The notes below the pieces were generated by a model. It worked only from the letters and a program-made list of their open reading frames with translations, ran no database searches and had not been told where the DNA came from. Below, one piece after another: positions 9,808 to 44,560 of a stretch of 52,245 nt of DNA. Made by a program: the position numbers and the translations under genes. This stretch comes from Christensenellales bacterium. Its GTDB lineage: Bacteria; Bacillota; Clostridia; Christensenellales; CAG-138. Within the stretch, counting starts at the first letter, position 1. Every line of letters starts with the position of its first letter. The stretch lies in NCBI GenBank assembly GCA_045224495.1, contig JBGVAK010000086.1, positions 1-52,245 on the forward strand. Direction: 5' to 3'.

Positions 9808-11004
9808 TTATGCCCACGGCATTTTCAATGTAAAGGATTCGCTCTTTTCGTCCATCTCGTAGCGCTTTTCCTTGTGGGTGGGGTCGTCCAGCCAGTCGTA
9901 GTCGTCAAGGTAGGGCGAATAGTTCACGCAGCGGATCTCGCGGTTCTCCTCGTCGAACTGCATGAGGCGCAGGTAGCCGCCGCCGCCCTCCTTCCCCGCC
10001 GCTTGGTAGTTCATCATGATCTCGTAGACCGTCCGCTCCTTGACCCCGTCCCCGTCGTCGTCGAAGACGTCCTCCAGGGTGTACAGGCCGTATCGATGGC
10101 CGCAGAGGACCATGTACACATTGGGGCATTTGGCCACCACCTGTTCCCGCAGCTGCTTGCCCGCCTCGGAGAGGGTCCCTTCCGTGGTGATGAAATCGTG
10201 GAGACACAGGATGCCCACCCGATCCGGGTACTTTTGGAAGCTCTTGACCATAAACTGGATGGCCTTTTTGTCGGGGGCATGGCTCATGTACACAAAGATA
10301 TAGTCGCGCCCGCAGACGGTGACCAGGTCGTAGTGGCCCCGATTGTTCTCGAAGCTCTCCCCGTAGCAGGGCTGCTGACTATACTGCTTCTCCCCAAAGT
10401 ATTTCCCGTAGTTCTTGTATCCGCCCTTGGCGGGATCCATGTCGTGGTTGCCGGCCAGGACGCCCGTGGGGATGCCGTTGAGCAGGTCCATAGCCTCCCG
10501 CGCCGTCTGCCAGTTTTCGAGGTCGTCGTTCACGTGGACCAGGTCCCCCGTGTGCACCACGTACACAAGGTGCATCTGGTCCGCCTTGTCCCGAAGAAAG
10601 CCGGTCATGGCCGGATAGATATCCGGGGAAAGCTGGTTCTTGCGGTAGTTGGCGTAGTGCTGGGTGTCGGAGAGCCAGGCCACAGTCTCCACCCCATCCG
10701 CCACCTGATACCGCTCCTCGGGCGCCGGGGTGTCCGTGGGCTCGGCCGTAGCCGCTGTGGTGGGCTCCGCCGTAGGCGTCGCTGGAGGTTCCGTGGCCTC
10801 GGGGACGAAGATGCTCTCATTGGACGGATAGGGCCAGGGCGTCTCCTGGGGTGCGGCGGTGGGCGTGGCCAACAGAGGCGCTATCTCCACCTGAAGGCTG
10901 TCCGTAGGTGATGCTGTAGGCTGAACGCCCGTGTCCTTAGCCGTGCCCCGGCAACCCAGGAGGATCAATAGGACCGATATGCAGATGATCACATGTTTTT
11001 TCAT
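9808..11004 (-). CDS. Metallophosphoesterase lipoprotein (calcineurin-like)
   Basis: Lipobox LLILLGC, PT-rich linker, and VHTGDLV, GNHD and CGHRYG motifs. Confidence 0.8.
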   Translation of the reverse strand: MKKHVIICISVLLILLGCRGTAKDTGVQPTASPTDSLQVEIAPLLATPTAAPQETPWPYPSNESIFVPEATEPPATPTAEPTTAATAEPTDTPAPEERYQVADGVETVAWLSDTQHYANYRKNQLSPDIYPAMTGFLRDKADQMHLVYVVHTGDLVHVNDDLENWQTAREAMDLLNGIPTGVLAGNHDMDPAKGGYKNYGKYFGEKQYSQQPCYGESFENNRGHYDLVTVCGRDYIFVYMSHAPDKKAIQFMVKSFQKYPDRVGILCLHDFITTEGTLSEAGKQLREQVVAKCPNVYMVLCGHRYGLYTLEDVFDDDGDGVKERTVYEIMMNYQAAGKEGGGGYLRLMQFDEENREIRCVNYSPYLDDYDWLDDPTHKEKRYEMDEKSESFTLKMPWA

Positions 11005-17399: not shown

Positions 17400-18146
17400 T
17401 TATATCTTATCCGTCACATGTTTCAATAGAATCGCCGTGGTCAAGGCGCCAACGCCGCCTTTGAAGGGGGCATAGTTCTCCACTATGGGAGGTACCTCCT
17501 CCTCCACTACGTCGCCGCCCACGTTGATGACCGTCTGGCCGGGTCGCACGCAATCCTTTCCGATCAGGCCTGCCTTGCCCGTGGCGCAGACCAGGATGTC
17601 CGCTTGACGACAGAGCTCCGGAAGCTTTTGCGTCTTGCTGTGGCAGATGGTCACGGTGGCGTCCCGGTCGATAAGCAGCATGGCAAGCGGCCGCCCCACC
17701 GTCATGGACCGACTCAAAATCACTGCGTGCCGGCCTGATATGGGGATGCCGTAGTATTCCAACAGCCGTACGCAGGACTCCGCCGTGCAGGGCGTGTTGC
17801 GGGGAAACGATGTAAGCCCCCCCACGTACAGGGTATGATGGCTGTTGGGATCTCGACCATCCACATCCAGCTCCTCCGGGATGGTGACCGGCAGCTTGGT
17901 CTTGCTGAGCACGATCATGCCCCCCAGCTCGTAAGGCGGCAGGTCCCATCCTTCGGACAGGGGATGGGCATAAAAAGGAATGCCATGGGCCTCGCTGGCG
18001 CGCTGGATGCTCCTGAGATACCAGCCGGCAGGCACGTCATCCGGCTCATAGACGGCAAACAGGCCAGGGATAGACGATGCACCCTTGACCCGCTGGTCGA
18101 TCTCAGCATATAGCTGCTCCGCTGGCTGTTTTCCGGTAAGCAGCAT
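17400..18146 (-). CDS. FolD-fold protein (methylene-THF dehydrogenase/cyclohydrolase-like), apparently lacking the catalytic lysine
   Basis: Start at MLLTGKQ (ATG 18146, TGATG overlap). DVDG, RSMTVGRP, ICHSKT and GGVGALT are conserved, but the YxxxK region reads WYLRSIQ. Confidence 0.7.
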   Translation of the reverse strand: MLLTGKQPAEQLYAEIDQRVKGASSIPGLFAVYEPDDVPAGWYLRSIQRASEAHGIPFYAHPLSEGWDLPPYELGGMIVLSKTKLPVTIPEELDVDGRDPNSHHTLYVGGLTSFPRNTPCTAESCVRLLEYYGIPISGRHAVILSRSMTVGRPLAMLLIDRDATVTICHSKTQKLPELCRQADILVCATGKAGLIGKDCVRPGQTVINVGGDVVEEEVPPIVENYAPFKGGVGALTTAILLKHVTDKI

Positions 18147-18784
18147 CAGGCGTCCTCCTCCAGACAGACCTCCTTGAAATAGGGCAAGCTCTCGATCATA
18201 TGACAGAAGTCGTGCCACTCCGTGAGCTTATGGTCCTTCCGGGACCAGTACATGTGGAGCAGCACCTCGTAGTTGAGCTGCACCGTGGCCCGCATGCAGT
18301 ACCCCTCGGGCAGCAGCTCGATGAGGGCCCGCCAATACTTCTTCTCCTTGGTGGCGTTGAAATCCAGGCGGAGCCGTTCGCAGGCGGCGACGACCGCGTC
18401 CAAAGCCTCCTGAGCGTAGGGGACCTCGTCGATGCCGTCATGGGCAAAGTCCTCAGTGGTGAAGGTCTTAGAGTGGATCTTGTGCATTTTGGAGCAGGAG
18501 TTGCGGACCGTGCCCACTTTGTAGGTATCGAACTCGAACCACCAGGGCTGCATGGCGGTGATGTCCATGGTAACGTTGATCATGCGCAGGTACTTCCTGT
18601 GATCGCTGCCCGCCTTCCGAAGCCGCTTCATGAGGTCCAGGTCATTGGGGCCGATCTGGGCGGTCTCCTCCCCGTTCTCATAGGTGATGGTGCTGTCGCC
18701 CTTCTTCCAGCTGTTCAGGGGGTTGCGCATGCCCCTGAGCGCGGCGGCAAAGCCGGTGACGGAAATGTTCTCGATGGTGATCAT
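18146..18784 (-). CDS. ThyX/Thy1-fold protein with a degenerate RHRxxS signature
   Basis: By-eye alignment to ThyX: AALRGMRNP, KAGSDHRKYLRMINVTMDI, and WSRKDHKLTEW versus LRADSHAQWE. The RHRIAS position reads DTYKVG. SD AAGGAGAGGG. Confidence 0.5.
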   Translation of the reverse strand: MITIENISVTGFAAALRGMRNPLNSWKKGDSTITYENGEETAQIGPNDLDLMKRLRKAGSDHRKYLRMINVTMDITAMQPWWFEFDTYKVGTVRNSCSKMHKIHSKTFTTEDFAHDGIDEVPYAQEALDAVVAACERLRLDFNATKEKKYWRALIELLPEGYCMRATVQLNYEVLLHMYWSRKDHKLTEWHDFCHMIESLPYFKEVCLEEDA

Positions 18785-18813
18785 TCGTATTCCCTCTCCT
18801 TTTTTCTCAAAGC

Positions 18814-19794
18814 TTATAGCAGGTTGCTCCGCAGCTCCTGGGCGGACAGAGGCGATAGCAGGCCCAGCGGCACGTCGAAAGCGGTGAAACAGCCCGTACG
18901 CCCCTGCTGGTGGAGCCCATAACAGGCCCGACCGAAGGCGGTCATGACGGCGCCGGTGAACATGGGGTTGGAGTCCAATTCCAGCTTGTACTCCATGAGG
19001 GAAGAATACTGCCGCTCAGGCCCCAGCCTGCCGCTGCGGATCACGAACCCGCCGTGGGGCATGGCGCTGTGCTCCGCCGCCATCTCCTCCGCGGAGATGA
19101 AGTTGACCGTAGTGTCGTAGGCGTCGAAGTAGTTGGGCATGGTGACGATCTCCTGGGCCACCCGCTGGGGATCGGCTCCATCCTGCAGTACCACGTATAC
19201 GTCCCGGGTGTGCTTTTCCCGAGCCGTAAACCCGCCCTCGCCCTTGCGGACGGCGTTGACGGTCTTCTGTACGGGGATGGTGTACTGCCGAGCGTCCGCC
19301 ACGCCTTCGATGCGCCGGACCGCGTCGGAATGACCCTGGCTCACGCCGGGTCCCCAGAAGGTGTCCCCCGTGCCCTCCGGCAGGATGGCCGTCCCCAGGA
19401 GCCGCATCATCGAAAAGAGGCCCGGGTCCCAGCCCGTGCTGATGATGGCCGTGGTCATGCCCTCTCTAGCGGCAGCGTCCACATTGGCAAAGTGCTCCGG
19501 GATGCGAGCGTGAGTGTCGAAGGTGTCCACTACACAATACCGCTTCGCCAGCGCCGGCGTCTGTTCGGGCAGGTCCGTGGCGCTGCCGCCGCAAAGGAGC
19601 AGCACGTCCACGTCCGCCTTTTGTTCCGTCAGCGCTGTCATGGGATAGATAGCCGTGTCCTCACGAAGAGCGTGTACCGACGATGGCGAACGGCGGGTGA
19701 ATATGCCCGTCAAGACCATATCCTCGCTCTGCAGGACAGCGGATTCCGCCCCCCGTCCCACGTTGCCGTATCCAACGATGCCGACACGAATCAT
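18814..19794 (-). CDS. ddh: meso-diaminopimelate D-dehydrogenase
   Basis: MIRVGIVGYGNVGRG, STGWDPG and GPGVSQGHSDA motifs. Confidence 0.85.
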   Translation of the reverse strand: MIRVGIVGYGNVGRGAESAVLQSEDMVLTGIFTRRSPSSVHALREDTAIYPMTALTEQKADVDVLLLCGGSATDLPEQTPALAKRYCVVDTFDTHARIPEHFANVDAAAREGMTTAIISTGWDPGLFSMMRLLGTAILPEGTGDTFWGPGVSQGHSDAVRRIEGVADARQYTIPVQKTVNAVRKGEGGFTAREKHTRDVYVVLQDGADPQRVAQEIVTMPNYFDAYDTTVNFISAEEMAAEHSAMPHGGFVIRSGRLGPERQYSSLMEYKLELDSNPMFTGAVMTAFGRACYGLHQQGRTGCFTAFDVPLGLLSPLSAQELRSNLL

Positions 19795-19829: not shown

Positions 19830-19858
19830 AGTATATAATTTTCTGGAGGTAAAGTCAA
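19830..19858 (-). promoter_or_regulatory. Sigma-A-type promoter of the ddh operon
   Basis: Minus strand reads TTGACT (19858-19853), N17, TATACT (19835-19830). Confidence 0.6.
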
Positions 19859-41255: not shown

Positions 41256-43049
41256 TTAGTCTTCCAGGTCCTTGAACGAGATATGCAGCTCATCCAGCTG
41301 CTTCTGCTCCACGGGATAGGGCGCGCCGGTCAGCGGATCGGAGGCGTTCTGCACCTTGGGGAAGGCGATCACGTCGCGGATGCTGCTGGCGCCGCAGATC
41401 AGCATGGCCAACCGATCGAGGCCATAGGCCAGTCCGCCGTGAGGCGGCGTGCCGTACTTGAAGGCGTTGAGCAGGAAGCCAAAGCGCTGCTGGGCCGCCT
41501 CCTCGGTGAATCCAAGAGCCTTGAACATCCGCTTTTGAAGCTCTGCAGAATGGATACGGATGCTGCCGCCGCCGATCTCGTTGCCGTTGAGCACGATATC
41601 GTAGGCCTTGGCCCGGACCGCGCCGGGATCGGTCTCGATGAGATCCAGGTCCTCGTCCATGGGGCTGGTGAAGGGATGGTGCATGGCCATGAACCGGCCC
41701 TCCTCCTCGCTCCACTCGAATTGGGGGAACTCCACCACCCACAGCAGGGCATAAGTGTTCTCGGGGATCAGGTTCAGCTTGTTGGCCACCTTGAGACGCA
41801 GGGCGCCCAGGGATGCCCAGACCACGCTATTTTGGTCCGCCACGATGAACAGCAGGTCGCCCTTCTCGAAGTCGGCCTTCTTCTCGATGGCCGCCACCTC
41901 CTCCCCGGAGAGGAACTTCAAAATGGGGCTCTGGATGCCCTCGTCCTTGTAGTTCATCCAGGCGAGGCCCTTGGCCTTGTAGGTCTTGACGAACTCGCCC
42001 TCGGCGTCGATCTCCTTGCGGGAATAGTGATGGGAACCGCCCTTCACATTGATGCAGCGGACGGAGCCGCCGTTCTTCACCGCGTTCGCGAACACGGAGA
42101 AGCCGCTGTCCTTCACGATATCCGTCAGGTCGACGAGCTCCATGCCGAAGCGCACGTCGGGCTTGTCGGAGCCGTAGCGGTTCATAGCGTCGATCCACTT
42201 GATCCGGGGCAGAGGGTTCGGGATGTCCACGTTCAGGCACTCCTTGAAGACCCGACGAAGGAAGCCCTCGTTCATAGCCATGACGTCGTCCTCCTCCACG
42301 AAGGACATCTCAAGGTCGATCTGCGTGAAGTCGGGCTGCCGGTCAGCACGAAGGTCCTCGTCCCGGAAGCAGCGGGCGATCTGCATGTACCGATCGAAGC
42401 CGGAGACCATGAGCATCTGCTTGAAGAGCTGAGGGCTCTGGGGCAGGGCGTAGAAGCTGCCCGGATGGACCCGGGAAGGCACCAGATAGTCCCGGGCGCC
42501 CTCGGGGGTGCTGCCGGTCAAAACCGGGGTCTCGATCTCCACGAAGCCGTTCTCCGCAAAGTATTCCCGGGTGATGTGGGCGATCTTGTGGCGCATCATC
42601 AGATTCTGCTGCATGATGGGCCGGCGAAGGTCCAGATACCGGTATTTGAGCCGCAGGAGCTCACCGGCGTTAGTGTCATCGCTGACCTCGAAGGGCGGCG
42701 TCTCGCTGACGGACAGGATCTTGAAGTCCTTGACCTTAACCTCCACCTCGCCGGTCTTCATCTTGGGGTTCACCATGTTGCCGGTCCGCGCTTCCAAGGT
42801 GCCCCGGACGGCCAGCACGTACTCCGAACGGATGGTGGACGCTCGGTCATAGTCCTCCGCACTCAGGGTGCTGCTGTCGAACACCACCTGCATGAGGCCG
42901 GACCGGTCCCTGAGCTGGACGAAGATCAGCGCGCCCAGATCGCGGCGCACGTTGCACCAGCCCATCAGCGTCACTTCCCTGCCCACGTCTGCTTTCGAAA
43001 GCTCCGTGCAATAGCAGGTGCGTTTCCATCCCTGCAGCAATTCACTCAT
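41256..43049 (-). CDS. aspS: Aspartate--tRNA ligase
   Basis: Class IIb motifs FRDEDLRADRQPDFTQID and GGGSIRIH, with a GAD insertion domain. Confidence 0.95.
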   Translation of the reverse strand: MSELLQGWKRTCYCTELSKADVGREVTLMGWCNVRRDLGALIFVQLRDRSGLMQVVFDSSTLSAEDYDRASTIRSEYVLAVRGTLEARTGNMVNPKMKTGEVEVKVKDFKILSVSETPPFEVSDDTNAGELLRLKYRYLDLRRPIMQQNLMMRHKIAHITREYFAENGFVEIETPVLTGSTPEGARDYLVPSRVHPGSFYALPQSPQLFKQMLMVSGFDRYMQIARCFRDEDLRADRQPDFTQIDLEMSFVEEDDVMAMNEGFLRRVFKECLNVDIPNPLPRIKWIDAMNRYGSDKPDVRFGMELVDLTDIVKDSGFSVFANAVKNGGSVRCINVKGGSHHYSRKEIDAEGEFVKTYKAKGLAWMNYKDEGIQSPILKFLSGEEVAAIEKKADFEKGDLLFIVADQNSVVWASLGALRLKVANKLNLIPENTYALLWVVEFPQFEWSEEEGRFMAMHHPFTSPMDEDLDLIETDPGAVRAKAYDIVLNGNEIGGGSIRIHSAELQKRMFKALGFTEEAAQQRFGFLLNAFKYGTPPHGGLAYGLDRLAMLICGASSIRDVIAFPKVQNASDPLTGAPYPVEQKQLDELHISFKDLED

Positions 43050-44316
43050 GACTATTGCCTCCTATCGTTTCTGCAATATCCTTGGCCGTGAGAGCGACCT
43101 CGATCTGCTCCCCGGTTTCCATCTTCTTGATATTTCCTCTGCCGGCGTCCAGCTCGCTTTCGCCGATGACCAGCACGTGCTTCGCTTCGGTCTTGCCGGC
43201 ATACTTGAAGTTGGCCTTGACGCTGCGGCCCACGTGGTCCGTATCGGCGGAGAATCCCAGCTTGCGAAGGCCGTTCACCAGCTCGAAAGCCTTCTGCCGT
43301 TCCGCGTCGCCCATGCCGAAGATGAGCACGTCCACAGGCTGAGGCTTGGGGATCTCCACGCCCAGCTGATCGAGATACAGCAGCAGCCGCTCGACACCCA
43401 GGCCAAAGCCCACTGCAGCCACCTCGGGACCGCCAATCTGCTTCACCAGGCCGTCGTACCGGCCCCCGCCGCAGAGGGTCCCCTGGGCGCCCGCCGCGCC
43501 GGAGACGATCTCGAACACGGTGCGTGTGTAGTAATCGAGGCCACGTACCAGCATGGGATCCATCTCATAGGGGATGCCGATGGCGTCCAGATACCCCCGG
43601 AGCTTGTCCATATGGGCCTTGCACTCGTCGCATACGTAGTCCATGGTGTGGGGCGCGTTGGCGTTGATCTTCTTGCAGCTCTCCACCTTGCAGTCCAAGA
43701 CCCGCAGGGGGTTCTTTTCCAGCCGCACCTGGCAGTCCTCGCAGAGCTCGTCCTTGTGTTCAGCCAAATATGCCTTCAGGGCAGCCTGGTATCGATCCCG
43801 ACACTGGGGACAGCCGATGGAGTTGAGCTTTACGGCGAGATCCCGGGCGCCCATGGCGGTGAAGATATCCCAGGCCATGGAGATGACCTCTGCGTCCGCG
43901 CTGGGCTCGGGGGCCCCGAAGCACTCCACGCCGAATTGGTGATGCTCCCTAAGCCGCCCAGCCTGGGGCCGCTCGTAGCGGAACACGGGGCAGTTGAGAT
44001 AATAGACCTTCATAGGCATGGCCTCCGCGAAGAGCCCGTGCTCCACGAACATGCGCACGGTCCCTGCCGTGCCCTCGGGCTTCAGCGTGATGCTGCGGCC
44101 GCCCTTGTCGTTGAAGGTATACATTTCCTTTTGCACCACGTCCGTGGTGTCGCCCACGGAGCGCAAAAACAGCTCCGTGTGCTCGATGACCGGGGTGCGG
44201 ATCTCCTTGAAACCGTAGCGGGCGGTGGTGCGGCGGATCAGATCCTCCACGTACTGCCAGCGATAGCTCTCCGCCGGAGTAACGTCCCGGGTCCCTTTTG
44301 GTGCCTGATATGCCAT
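43042..44316 (-). CDS. hisS: Histidine--tRNA ligase
   Basis: MAYQAPKGTRD, FRYERPQAGRLREHHQ and GGGRYDGL. SD AGGAGGA. Confidence 0.95.
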   Translation of the reverse strand: MAYQAPKGTRDVTPAESYRWQYVEDLIRRTTARYGFKEIRTPVIEHTELFLRSVGDTTDVVQKEMYTFNDKGGRSITLKPEGTAGTVRMFVEHGLFAEAMPMKVYYLNCPVFRYERPQAGRLREHHQFGVECFGAPEPSADAEVISMAWDIFTAMGARDLAVKLNSIGCPQCRDRYQAALKAYLAEHKDELCEDCQVRLEKNPLRVLDCKVESCKKINANAPHTMDYVCDECKAHMDKLRGYLDAIGIPYEMDPMLVRGLDYYTRTVFEIVSGAAGAQGTLCGGGRYDGLVKQIGGPEVAAVGFGLGVERLLLYLDQLGVEIPKPQPVDVLIFGMGDAERQKAFELVNGLRKLGFSADTDHVGRSVKANFKYAGKTEAKHVLVIGESELDAGRGNIKKMETGEQIEVALTAKDIAETIGGNSHE

Positions 44317-44554
44317 AGTTAAATCCTCCTGTATGAAAAAGCGGCCCCGTCTCCATGCGAGGGACGGAAGACCGCGGTGCCACCCTGATTAAGCGAAAAC
44401 GCTTCACTCTTGTTCCTAACGCGAACTGCACGGCGGGCCATTTCCTGCCCGCGGCTCCCGGGTGTCCTTCCAAACGCCTTCTCCGTTCGGCTCCCACCGT
44501 CCCGAACTCGCTTGTGGATGTATCCTGCGTCTGTACTCTCCCGTTCGCAGCCTT
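44317..44554 (-). promoter_or_regulatory. T-box leader (tRNA-sensing transcription attenuator) of the hisS-aspS operon
   Basis: Minus strand shows GGGAGAGTA (S-turn element), stem III GAAGCG-tttt-CGCTT, the T-box AATCAGGGTGGCACCGCGG (44390-44372), and the terminator GCGG..CCGTC-loop-GACGG..CCGC-TTTTT (44375-44336). Confidence 0.85.
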
Positions 44555-44560
44555 TGCTGT

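Follow-up and report, generated by a model that had tools for sequence, protein, structure and literature searches.

Background

In thyA-folA operons and in the bifunctional enzyme that unites dihydrofolate reductase with thymidylate synthase (DHFR-TS), thymidylate synthase is co-expressed with an enzyme that regenerates its folate. In this study, we analyze a pair of adjacent genes that offers an analogy to these systems, ORF A and ORF B (open reading frames A and B), both on the minus strand of a 52,245-nt contig stretch from a Christensenellales bacterium of the CAG-138 lineage; this whole stretch is called the window throughout. The closest described relatives of the two products are ThyX (PF02511; TM0449, 1O26), the flavin-dependent thymidylate synthase, which is an antibacterial target owing to its signature active site, and the bifunctional FolD (PF00763 and PF02882). 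The partner in the window is a FolD-type dehydrogenase, not DHFR, which suits ThyX-type chemistry in that this yields tetrahydrofolate (THF) rather than dihydrofolate.

We propose that ORF A encodes a divergent but active thymidylate synthase of the ThyX type and that ORF B encodes a dehydrogenase-only FolD that would supply it with methylene-THF, an account that draws on the fold, on conservation and on guilt by association and that we judge to have about an even chance of being right. New here are the combination of a ThyX fold carrying a rebuilt signature with a FolD-derived accessory, and a family for which neither Pfam, NCBIfam nor PHROG gives a function. Our literature searches found no description of a ThyX-like, ThyX-fold or third thymidylate synthase family matching ORF A, and nothing relevant on Clostridia without thyA and thyX. 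An earlier note, made by reading the letters of the window, had drawn attention to the pair; its gene coordinates, the TGATG overlap and all the peptide strings that it quoted are present as it described them.

Results and Discussion

Fold of ORF A and its relation to ThyX

ORF A has no match in Pfam or NCBIfam at E ≤ 0.1, and searches of the PDB sequences with phmmer and with the family profile returned nothing meaningful, with no ThyX among the matches. In PHROGs it falls into phrog_6721 (2.9e-65), which is listed as of "unknown function". We built an AlphaFold2 (AF2) model on 34 homologues (pLDDT 87.4, pTM 0.80) and compared it with the PDB by Foldseek; all 50 listed matches are ThyX, with TM scores of 0.52-0.64 and identities of 12-17%. 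The best of them is the Helicobacter pylori enzyme (3AH5, E 2e-8), and the enzymes of Thermotoga maritima, Mycobacterium tuberculosis and Corynebacterium glutamicum are also present. When the model is compared with the viral models of BFVD, the top matches (E 8.5e-22) are uncharacterised members of its own family, and phage ThyX/Thy1 proteins rank behind them. A few members of the family exceed or come close to the Pfam Thy1 cut-off: P0176 scores 29.3 bits, above the gathering score (cut-off 24.8), and P0250 (E 0.0019) and P0160 (E 0.0075) match it as well.

The ThyX fold that the earlier note had recognised by eye is borne out by AF2 and Foldseek, while profile hidden Markov models (HMMs) show no Thy1 match for the protein of the window. 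ORF A and ThyX agree in fold (TM about 0.6) and in length (about 210-220 amino acids) and have collinear secondary structure, and the homology of the two is well supported by the predicted structure. ORF A nevertheless stands outside Thy1 (PF02511) as this family is now defined.

Residues kept and replaced in ORF A

A profile of the ORF A family, consisting of 77 representatives at 50% identity, was aligned by hhalign to two ThyX profiles, built from 11 and from 91 sequences, with the T. maritima sequence (TmThyX) as the reference; this sequence is 100% identical to that of 1KQ4. Aligned by hhalign to TmThyX alone, the family gave nothing. The first of the profile alignments is collinear from end to end, in keeping with the predicted secondary structure; its C-terminal half is the same in both runs, and the alignment to the larger profile is stable there only. 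In both runs, P151, N163, R174, H178 and E182 of TmThyX correspond to P159, N171, R182, H185 and E189 of ORF A, which therefore has the residues that contact the pyrimidine and the flavin from the C-terminal side (N163, R174 and H178), within a ThyX-like N...R..(x)H...E motif, as well as the LP151 element. In the first alignment only, R28, H53, N85 and S88 are matched by R20, H62, N95 and S98.

Between these conserved parts lies the segment in which ORF A departs from ThyX. With a register uncertain by ±1, R78/H79/R80 of TmThyX fall on T87/Y88/K89, S83 on T92, and R90/Y91 on M100/H101, which follow S98 and K99, and no RHR is present in ORF A in any register. The ThyX pattern RHRxxS...SxRY is replaced by DTYKVGTVxNSCSxMH, which is invariant in the family, and when ORF A is held against the full pattern RHRxxS(x4)SxRY, just the equivalents of Ser88 and Asn85 remain. 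The residues R78, H79, R90, Y91 and R147 of ThyX are not conserved at the positions aligned with them; the invariant basic residues R20, K64, R67 and K89 are found instead. The loss of RHRxxS that the earlier note had reported stands, but not its register, since by eye the motif had been placed on D86/T87/Y88, one residue off from the T87/Y88/K89 of the profile alignment.

In TmThyX, R78 serves to stabilise the flavin in its anionic reduced form. H53 stacks against flavin or folate, with N85 and Y91 keeping it in place, and S88 forms a hydrogen bond with the flavin C4=O (PMC11940539). ORF A has equivalents of H53, N85 and S88, without one of R78.

The replaced segment has not decayed: the motif that takes the place of the signature does not vary throughout a very large family and is under strong constraint. 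K64, R67, Y88, S98, H101 and R182 occur in 77/77 of the diverse representatives, R20, S96, M100 and H185 in 76/77, T87 in 74/77 and N171 in 59/77. "Degenerate", the word that the earlier note had used for ORF A, does not describe a protein in which six such residues are without exception and part of the ThyX active site is retained. We also considered Cys97 of the motif as an invariant, ThyA-like nucleophile and rejected it, as the position is Cys in just 62/77 members and Thr in 12.

Size and distribution of the ORF A family

A search of a collection of 5.8 billion proteins gave more than 8000 matches to ORF A, typically at about 60% identity. Clustered at 50% identity, the family comprises 4663 clusters at E ≤ 1e-3, 1140 of these at E ≤ 1e-30, and it is found in at least 600 species-representative genomes. 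These are mostly from gut and rumen Clostridia (Oscillospiraceae, Ruminococcus, Christensenella and metagenome-assembled genomes of Eubacteriales), with Merdimmobilis hominis and Oribacterium sp. among the isolates. The family also occurs in isolated phages of Clostridium, Clostridioides (phiCD211), Enterocloster, Fusobacterium (Fnu1) and Desulfovibrio, the hosts of which are all anaerobes. Indeed, and in this the family differs from ThyX, every named host or source is a strict anaerobe, a gut or rumen sample, or a phage of such an organism; the enzyme might be sensitive to oxygen, or coupled to redox partners of anaerobic metabolism. Every name given to a member at its source is "hypothetical" or "uncharacterized".

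Gene neighbourhoods of the ORF A family

We examined neighbours within 10 kb of the ORF A homolog in the best 80 genome loci and in 80 viral loci. In 25 of the 80 genome loci the gene lies directly 5' of pth, mfd is present in 26, and nadE is often found between the ORF A gene and pth. These pth-mfd-linked loci range in GC content from 0.45 to 0.66, and their ORF A proteins form a single clade with a mean identity of 76%, a pattern that suggests a housekeeping gene with vertical inheritance. The protein of the window belongs to another clade, whose members share 79% identity among themselves, compared with 52% to the pth clade and 54% to the viral members.

The viral loci place the gene among nucleotide-metabolism genes, in the ThyX-like niche beside ribonucleotide reductase, dUTPase and deoxynucleoside monophosphate (dNMP) kinase: NrdD occurs in 24 of them, NrdG in 20, dCTP deaminase/dUTPase in 28, dNMP kinase in 15 and NT5C in 10. 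At up to two genes on either side, the commonest families are DUF3310, PAPS_reduct, MazG, guanylate kinase, NRDD and dUTPase, and one locus (L001) has the order ORF A, dNMP kinase, NT5C, NrdD, NrdG and DCD. Fusions join the ORF A domain with dUTPase, with a guanylate-kinase-like dNMP kinase, with DUF3310 and, oddly, with Amidase_3 (P0156, P0259, P0176, P0250). Many phage ORF A genes are split by an HNH_3/NUMOD4 homing-endonuclease module after about residue 118 or 149, which brings their length to about 390-445 amino acids (L168-L186; P0147, P0160, P0183); these insertions resemble the introns and inteins carried by the phage genes td and nrd.

In 2.86 Mb of sequence around ORF A family genes, which includes the complete phage genomes CB457P1 and Fnu1, no ORF was recognised as ThyA (by phmmer) or as ThyX (by the 91-sequence HMM). 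The earlier note had argued for an activity other than housekeeping dTMP synthesis; the neighbourhoods speak otherwise, with ORF A sitting where a thymidylate synthase would and ThyA or ThyX never beside it. The complete genome of Enterocloster phage CB457P1 encodes NrdD, NrdG, Dut and ORF A. That of Fusobacterium phage Fnu1 (MK554696.1) encodes NrdD/G, dUTPase, a guanylate-kinase-like dNMP kinase, glutaredoxin, ORF A and a FolD of its own, and because it has this FolD without a known folate-dependent nucleotide enzyme, ORF A is the obvious candidate for the user of methylene-THF. Three large phage contigs (3/80 viral loci) have a FolD homologue 9 kb from the ORF A gene.

Two further features of Fnu1 were observed: a GIY-YIG nuclease gene interrupts its nrdD (L190, 1137-4813), and its FolD homologue is very divergent, with YAKHR at the YxxxK position (L191, 17807-18643). 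FolD was also tried as a marker of phages that carry ORF A and was discarded, since 54 FolD-carrying records included only phiKSUM from among 28 ORF A-bearing records.

These neighbourhoods bear on a different possibility, namely that ORF A is a ThyX-fold enzyme that makes a C5-modified pyrimidine (hydroxymethyl, formyl or other) or that methylates dCMP, UMP or another nucleotide. In that case the altered phosphate/flavin loop would reflect another substrate or another oxidation state of the one-carbon unit, with ORF B delivering the matching folate. Replacement of the ThyX signature by a different invariant motif would be expected under this possibility, PolB of polyoxin biosynthesis provides the example of a ThyX homologue that methylates UMP, and phage ORF A genes lie near DNA methyltransferases, PAPS-reductase-like genes and MazG, which accompany DNA-modification pathways too. 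We nevertheless consider it unlikely, because a modified base is improbable as a core trait of the hundreds of species in which the pth-mfd clade is vertically inherited, because the fusions with dUTPase and dNMP kinase fit a path from dUMP through dTMP to dTDP, and because the Arg that reads the uracil (R174 of TmThyX, R182 of ORF A) is invariant.

ORF B, a trimmed paralogue of FolD

ORF B matches the NAD(P)-binding domain PF02882 with 140 bits (E 4.7e-41, cut-off 27), and its N-terminal part scores 18.3 bits with PF00763, below the cut-off of 32.8. Against the FolD equivalogs of NCBIfam the best score is 142 bits, compared with a cut-off of 411, and all 25 listed, of 30, are far below their cut-offs. 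The predicted structure (pLDDT 94.1) has the two-domain fold of bifunctional FolD, with TM scores of 0.76-0.88 over both domains to 50 listed FolD/MTHFD chains, including those of Campylobacter jejuni, human, Thermus thermophilus and Escherichia coli; the N-terminal domain is folded in the model despite its score with PF00763.

Like FolD, ORF B retains DVDG (Asp125), SRSMTVGRP (the RS...VGxP motif), CHSKT and GGVGALT, all of which are conserved in the ORF B family. It differs from FolD in being shorter (248 amino acids versus about 280-295) and in the cyclohydrolase residues. Aligned to a solved FolD structure (6V6Y), the Lys of YxxxK is Ile47, with the Tyr retained, and Ile occupies this position in 68/68 members of the family, which upholds the Lys to Ile change in a FolD-like protein that had been noted earlier. 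The shortening of the N-terminal lobe, likewise remarked on before, is due to two deletions of about 10 and about 9 residues, and the second removes the QLPLP loop with Gln100. Both the YxxxK Lys (K56 in human numbering) and Gln100 are gone from ORF B. The ORF B family is a narrow clade; it comprises about 75 clusters with identities of ≥49%, beyond which the scores fall off sharply to full-length FolDs.

The loss of the Lys, which the earlier note had counted among the degenerate positions of the pair, is not special to it. All 41 of the 41 nearest full-length FolDs (P0347-P0390) are also without it, with Ala in 27, Ile in 12 and Val in 2, and they have the motif YERxAxKR, both Pfam domains and mostly Arg at the position of Gln100. 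ORF B has therefore inherited this feature from a clostridial FolD subclade, of which it is a shortened offshoot. Identity between the two is at most 55% over the C-terminal 60% or so of ORF B and 35-41% over the full length; unlike ORF B, the YERxAxKR proteins are full length and unlinked to an ORF A family gene. What is specific to ORF B is the trimming of its N-terminal domain and its position beside ORF A, the only place where it was found in the loci examined.

In the human enzyme, Lys56 and Gln100 are needed for the cyclohydrolase activity and not for the dehydrogenase activity, and Lys56 mutants keep the latter. From this mutagenesis, the FolD subclade that has no Lys is expected to be dehydrogenase-only, comparable to monofunctional methylene-THF dehydrogenases such as yeast MTD1. 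The few named YERxAxKR proteins are called "bifunctional FolD", and judged by their residues they are probably mis-annotated.

The absence of canonical residues from both proteins (RHR...S...R from ORF A, Lys and Gln from ORF B) had also raised the thought of a pseudo-enzyme or regulatory pair that binds ligands and has lost catalysis. We find this hard to believe. Polar and charged positions of the ThyX pocket are extremely conserved across thousands of sequences, and homing-endonuclease insertions and fusions with enzymes are typical of active nucleotide-metabolism genes. As for ORF B, its missing Lys is shared with those 41 nearest full-length FolDs, of which the few named are annotated FolD, and the human Lys56 mutants remain active dehydrogenases.

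An ORF B-like FolD paralogue is also found in phages. This protein (P0369), in a phage of the P22-portal type (L006/L007, 5603-6717), has 238 amino acids, is 40% identical to ORF B and has PF02882 only. It overlaps the end of an unrelated 133-amino-acid ORF, which we examined as a possible truncated ORF A and dismissed, as there is no similarity.

Conservation of the pair

The pair is conserved as a unit in relatives, as the reading of the earlier note required: it is present in seven loci and in two unrelated genomic contexts. The first, RluD-DUF218-ddh-A-B-DUF445, is found in the window and in three other loci (L003, L025, L026), all with a 1-nt overlap between the two genes. The second, BipA-A-B-QueT, is of the Christensenella type and is found in another three (L004, L028, L029), of which L004 and L029 have a 10-nt overlap and L028 a 1-nt gap. 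The 1:1 coupling that had also been suggested is not obligatory, as the wider distribution shows. In RUG14713 (L027, 428-kb contig, 10001-10694) an ORF A 88% identical to that of the window lies in the same ddh-A-DUF445 synteny without ORF B, with just 48 nt between ORF A and the convergent DUF445 gene, which points to a clean loss of ORF B. Only the four closest relatives among the best 80 genome loci have ORF B, and no FolD-like gene occurs within 10 kb of ORF A in 75 of these 80 loci or in 77 of the 80 viral loci, so that almost all other ORF A family genes are without a FolD neighbour. The coupling of the two genes is real and conserved, but it is lineage-specific and dispensable.

This distribution also decides how much weight can be given to an obligate heterocomplex with a new chemistry, in which the NAD(P)H/folate site of ORF B would replace flavin reduction or hydride delivery. 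Such a complex would account for the tight junction in seven loci and two contexts, for the absence from ORF A of the Arg that stabilises FADH- in ThyX, and for a distinct, conserved ORF B clade confined to the side of ORF A in the loci examined. We think it quite improbable, more so than a nucleotide-modifying activity, given the syntenic relative without ORF B and the many genome and viral loci without a FolD-like gene, in which ORF A keeps its invariant residues. In addition, the ORF B-like protein of phages occurs without ORF A, and the 133-amino-acid ORF upstream of it is no relative of ORF A.

A proposed function for the pair

From the observed folds, conservation, distribution and contexts, we infer a substrate, a cofactor and a product for ORF A and a direction for the reaction of ORF B. 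ORF A would be an active enzyme with a deoxypyrimidine monophosphate as its substrate and the representative of a large, unannotated sister family of ThyX. It appears to have retained the fold of ThyX, along with the region of the pocket in which the pyrimidine is read and flavin and folate are stacked. The loop that anchors phosphate and flavin has probably been rebuilt around DTYKVGTVxNSCSxMH, with R20, K64, R67 and K89 as new basic residues that do not vary. The likeliest reaction of the enzyme moves the one-carbon unit of 5,10-methylene-THF to C5 of dUMP and thereby makes dTMP, and many anaerobic Clostridia and their phages may rely on it as their thymidylate synthase. ORF B, coming from a FolD subclade already without the cyclohydrolase Lys and Gln, would be dehydrogenase-only; translated along with ORF A, it could provide a local supply of methylene-THF by the NAD(P)H-dependent reduction of methenyl-THF. 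It would be an accessory of ORF A, not an obligatory subunit.

Several points weigh against this proposal. The profile alignments between ORF A and ThyX are statistically insignificant (hhalign E 0.17-0.29 for the 11- and 91-sequence profiles), so that the homology of ORF A to ThyX rests on the fold search, and the mapping of residues in the RHR region carries the uncertainty of ±1 given above. The ThyX signature is gone from ORF A, including the flavin-stabilising R78, which leaves flavin use and dUMP binding putative. Because ORF B is missing from a close syntenic relative, it tells little about the chemistry of ORF A, and FolD genes also occur in many phages without an ORF A family gene. 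To our knowledge, most phages have no thymidylate synthase in any case, which makes the absence of ThyA and ThyX near ORF A weak evidence.

A bolder form of the proposal is that many strictly anaerobic Clostridia of gut and rumen, and their phages, have in the ORF A family their only thymidylate synthase and that it works unlike ThyX; this we regard as doubtful. Without the RHR loop or the Arg of the flavin hydroquinone, another reductant, cofactor or binding mode would be possible. If true, the family would in effect constitute a third class of thymidylate synthase, or else a subclass that has diverged deeply, and one that all present annotation pipelines overlook; the FolD-derived ORF B would be a lineage-specific add-on to it.

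For metabolic reconstructions of the gut microbiome, the family may represent a gap, either as a false thymidine auxotrophy or as an overlooked nucleotide activity. It can be seen as a natural experiment in the rebuilding of the ThyX active site, and ORF A is a testable candidate for the nucleotide metabolism of phages of anaerobes. ORF B, in turn, would illustrate how a FolD lineage that was already dehydrogenase-only underwent more trimming and came to be used beside ORF A.

Gene layout in the window

The features of the pair and of the region upstream are given in Table 1. At the junction gcCTGATGctg, the stop codon TGA of ORF A occupies 18148-18146 and the start codon ATG of ORF B 18146-18144, an arrangement that could lead to translational coupling of the two genes. 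A mechanically derived ORF list runs ORF B up to a GTG at 18218; the ATG is favoured by about 70 homologues with lengths of 242-252 amino acids.

Table 1. Features of the ORF A-ORF B unit and the region upstream of it (nucleotide positions in the window, unless given as residues)
Feature	Position	Strand	Remarks
ORF B	17400..18146	-	FolD paralogue; 248 aa counted from ATG
TGATG stop/start overlap of ORF A and ORF B	18144..18148	-	one base common to both genes
Shine-Dalgarno-like GGAGGAGG for ORF B	18153..18160	-	within the 3' end of ORF A, 6 nt before the ORF B ATG
ORF A	18146..18784	-	ATG start; 212 aa; ThyX-fold family phrog_6721, function unannotated
ORF A signature EFDTYKVGTVRNSCSKMH	residues 84-101		
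ORF A C-terminal RKDHKLTEW	residues 182-190		
Shine-Dalgarno-like AGGAGAGGGA for ORF A	18791..18800	-	inside the 29-nt gap between ddh and ORF A
ddh (meso-diaminopimelate dehydrogenase)	18814..19794	-	TIGR01921, 404 bits; synteny in L003, L025, L027
Sigma-70-like TTGACT-17-TATACT	19830..19858	-	before ddh; consensus match, 10/12

The unit is closed by the convergent DUF445 gene, and ddh is likely the upstream gene of the same operon. The pair does lie downstream of ddh in the window, as had been noted, but the linkage is incidental, with BipA and QueT flanking the pair in the Christensenella-type loci; it is lineage-specific and probably without functional meaning. A functional partnership between ddh and ORF A was considered and rejected, since the linkage is confined to the ddh-linked loci (the window, L003, L025 and L027) and absent from L004, L028 and L029. 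The promoter proposed for the unit by the earlier note is matched in sequence at its place, but a scan of this kind found 2 such sites where 1.6 are expected by chance.

No THF or ZTP riboswitch was found 5' of ORF A family genes in the window or in four loci, and a second, pth-mfd-linked copy of ORF A was sought in the window and is absent from it. Elsewhere in the window and unrelated to the pair, a T-box leader (RF00230, 105.7 bits) lies at 44357-44557 on the minus strand, 5' of a minus-strand ORF at 43042-44316.

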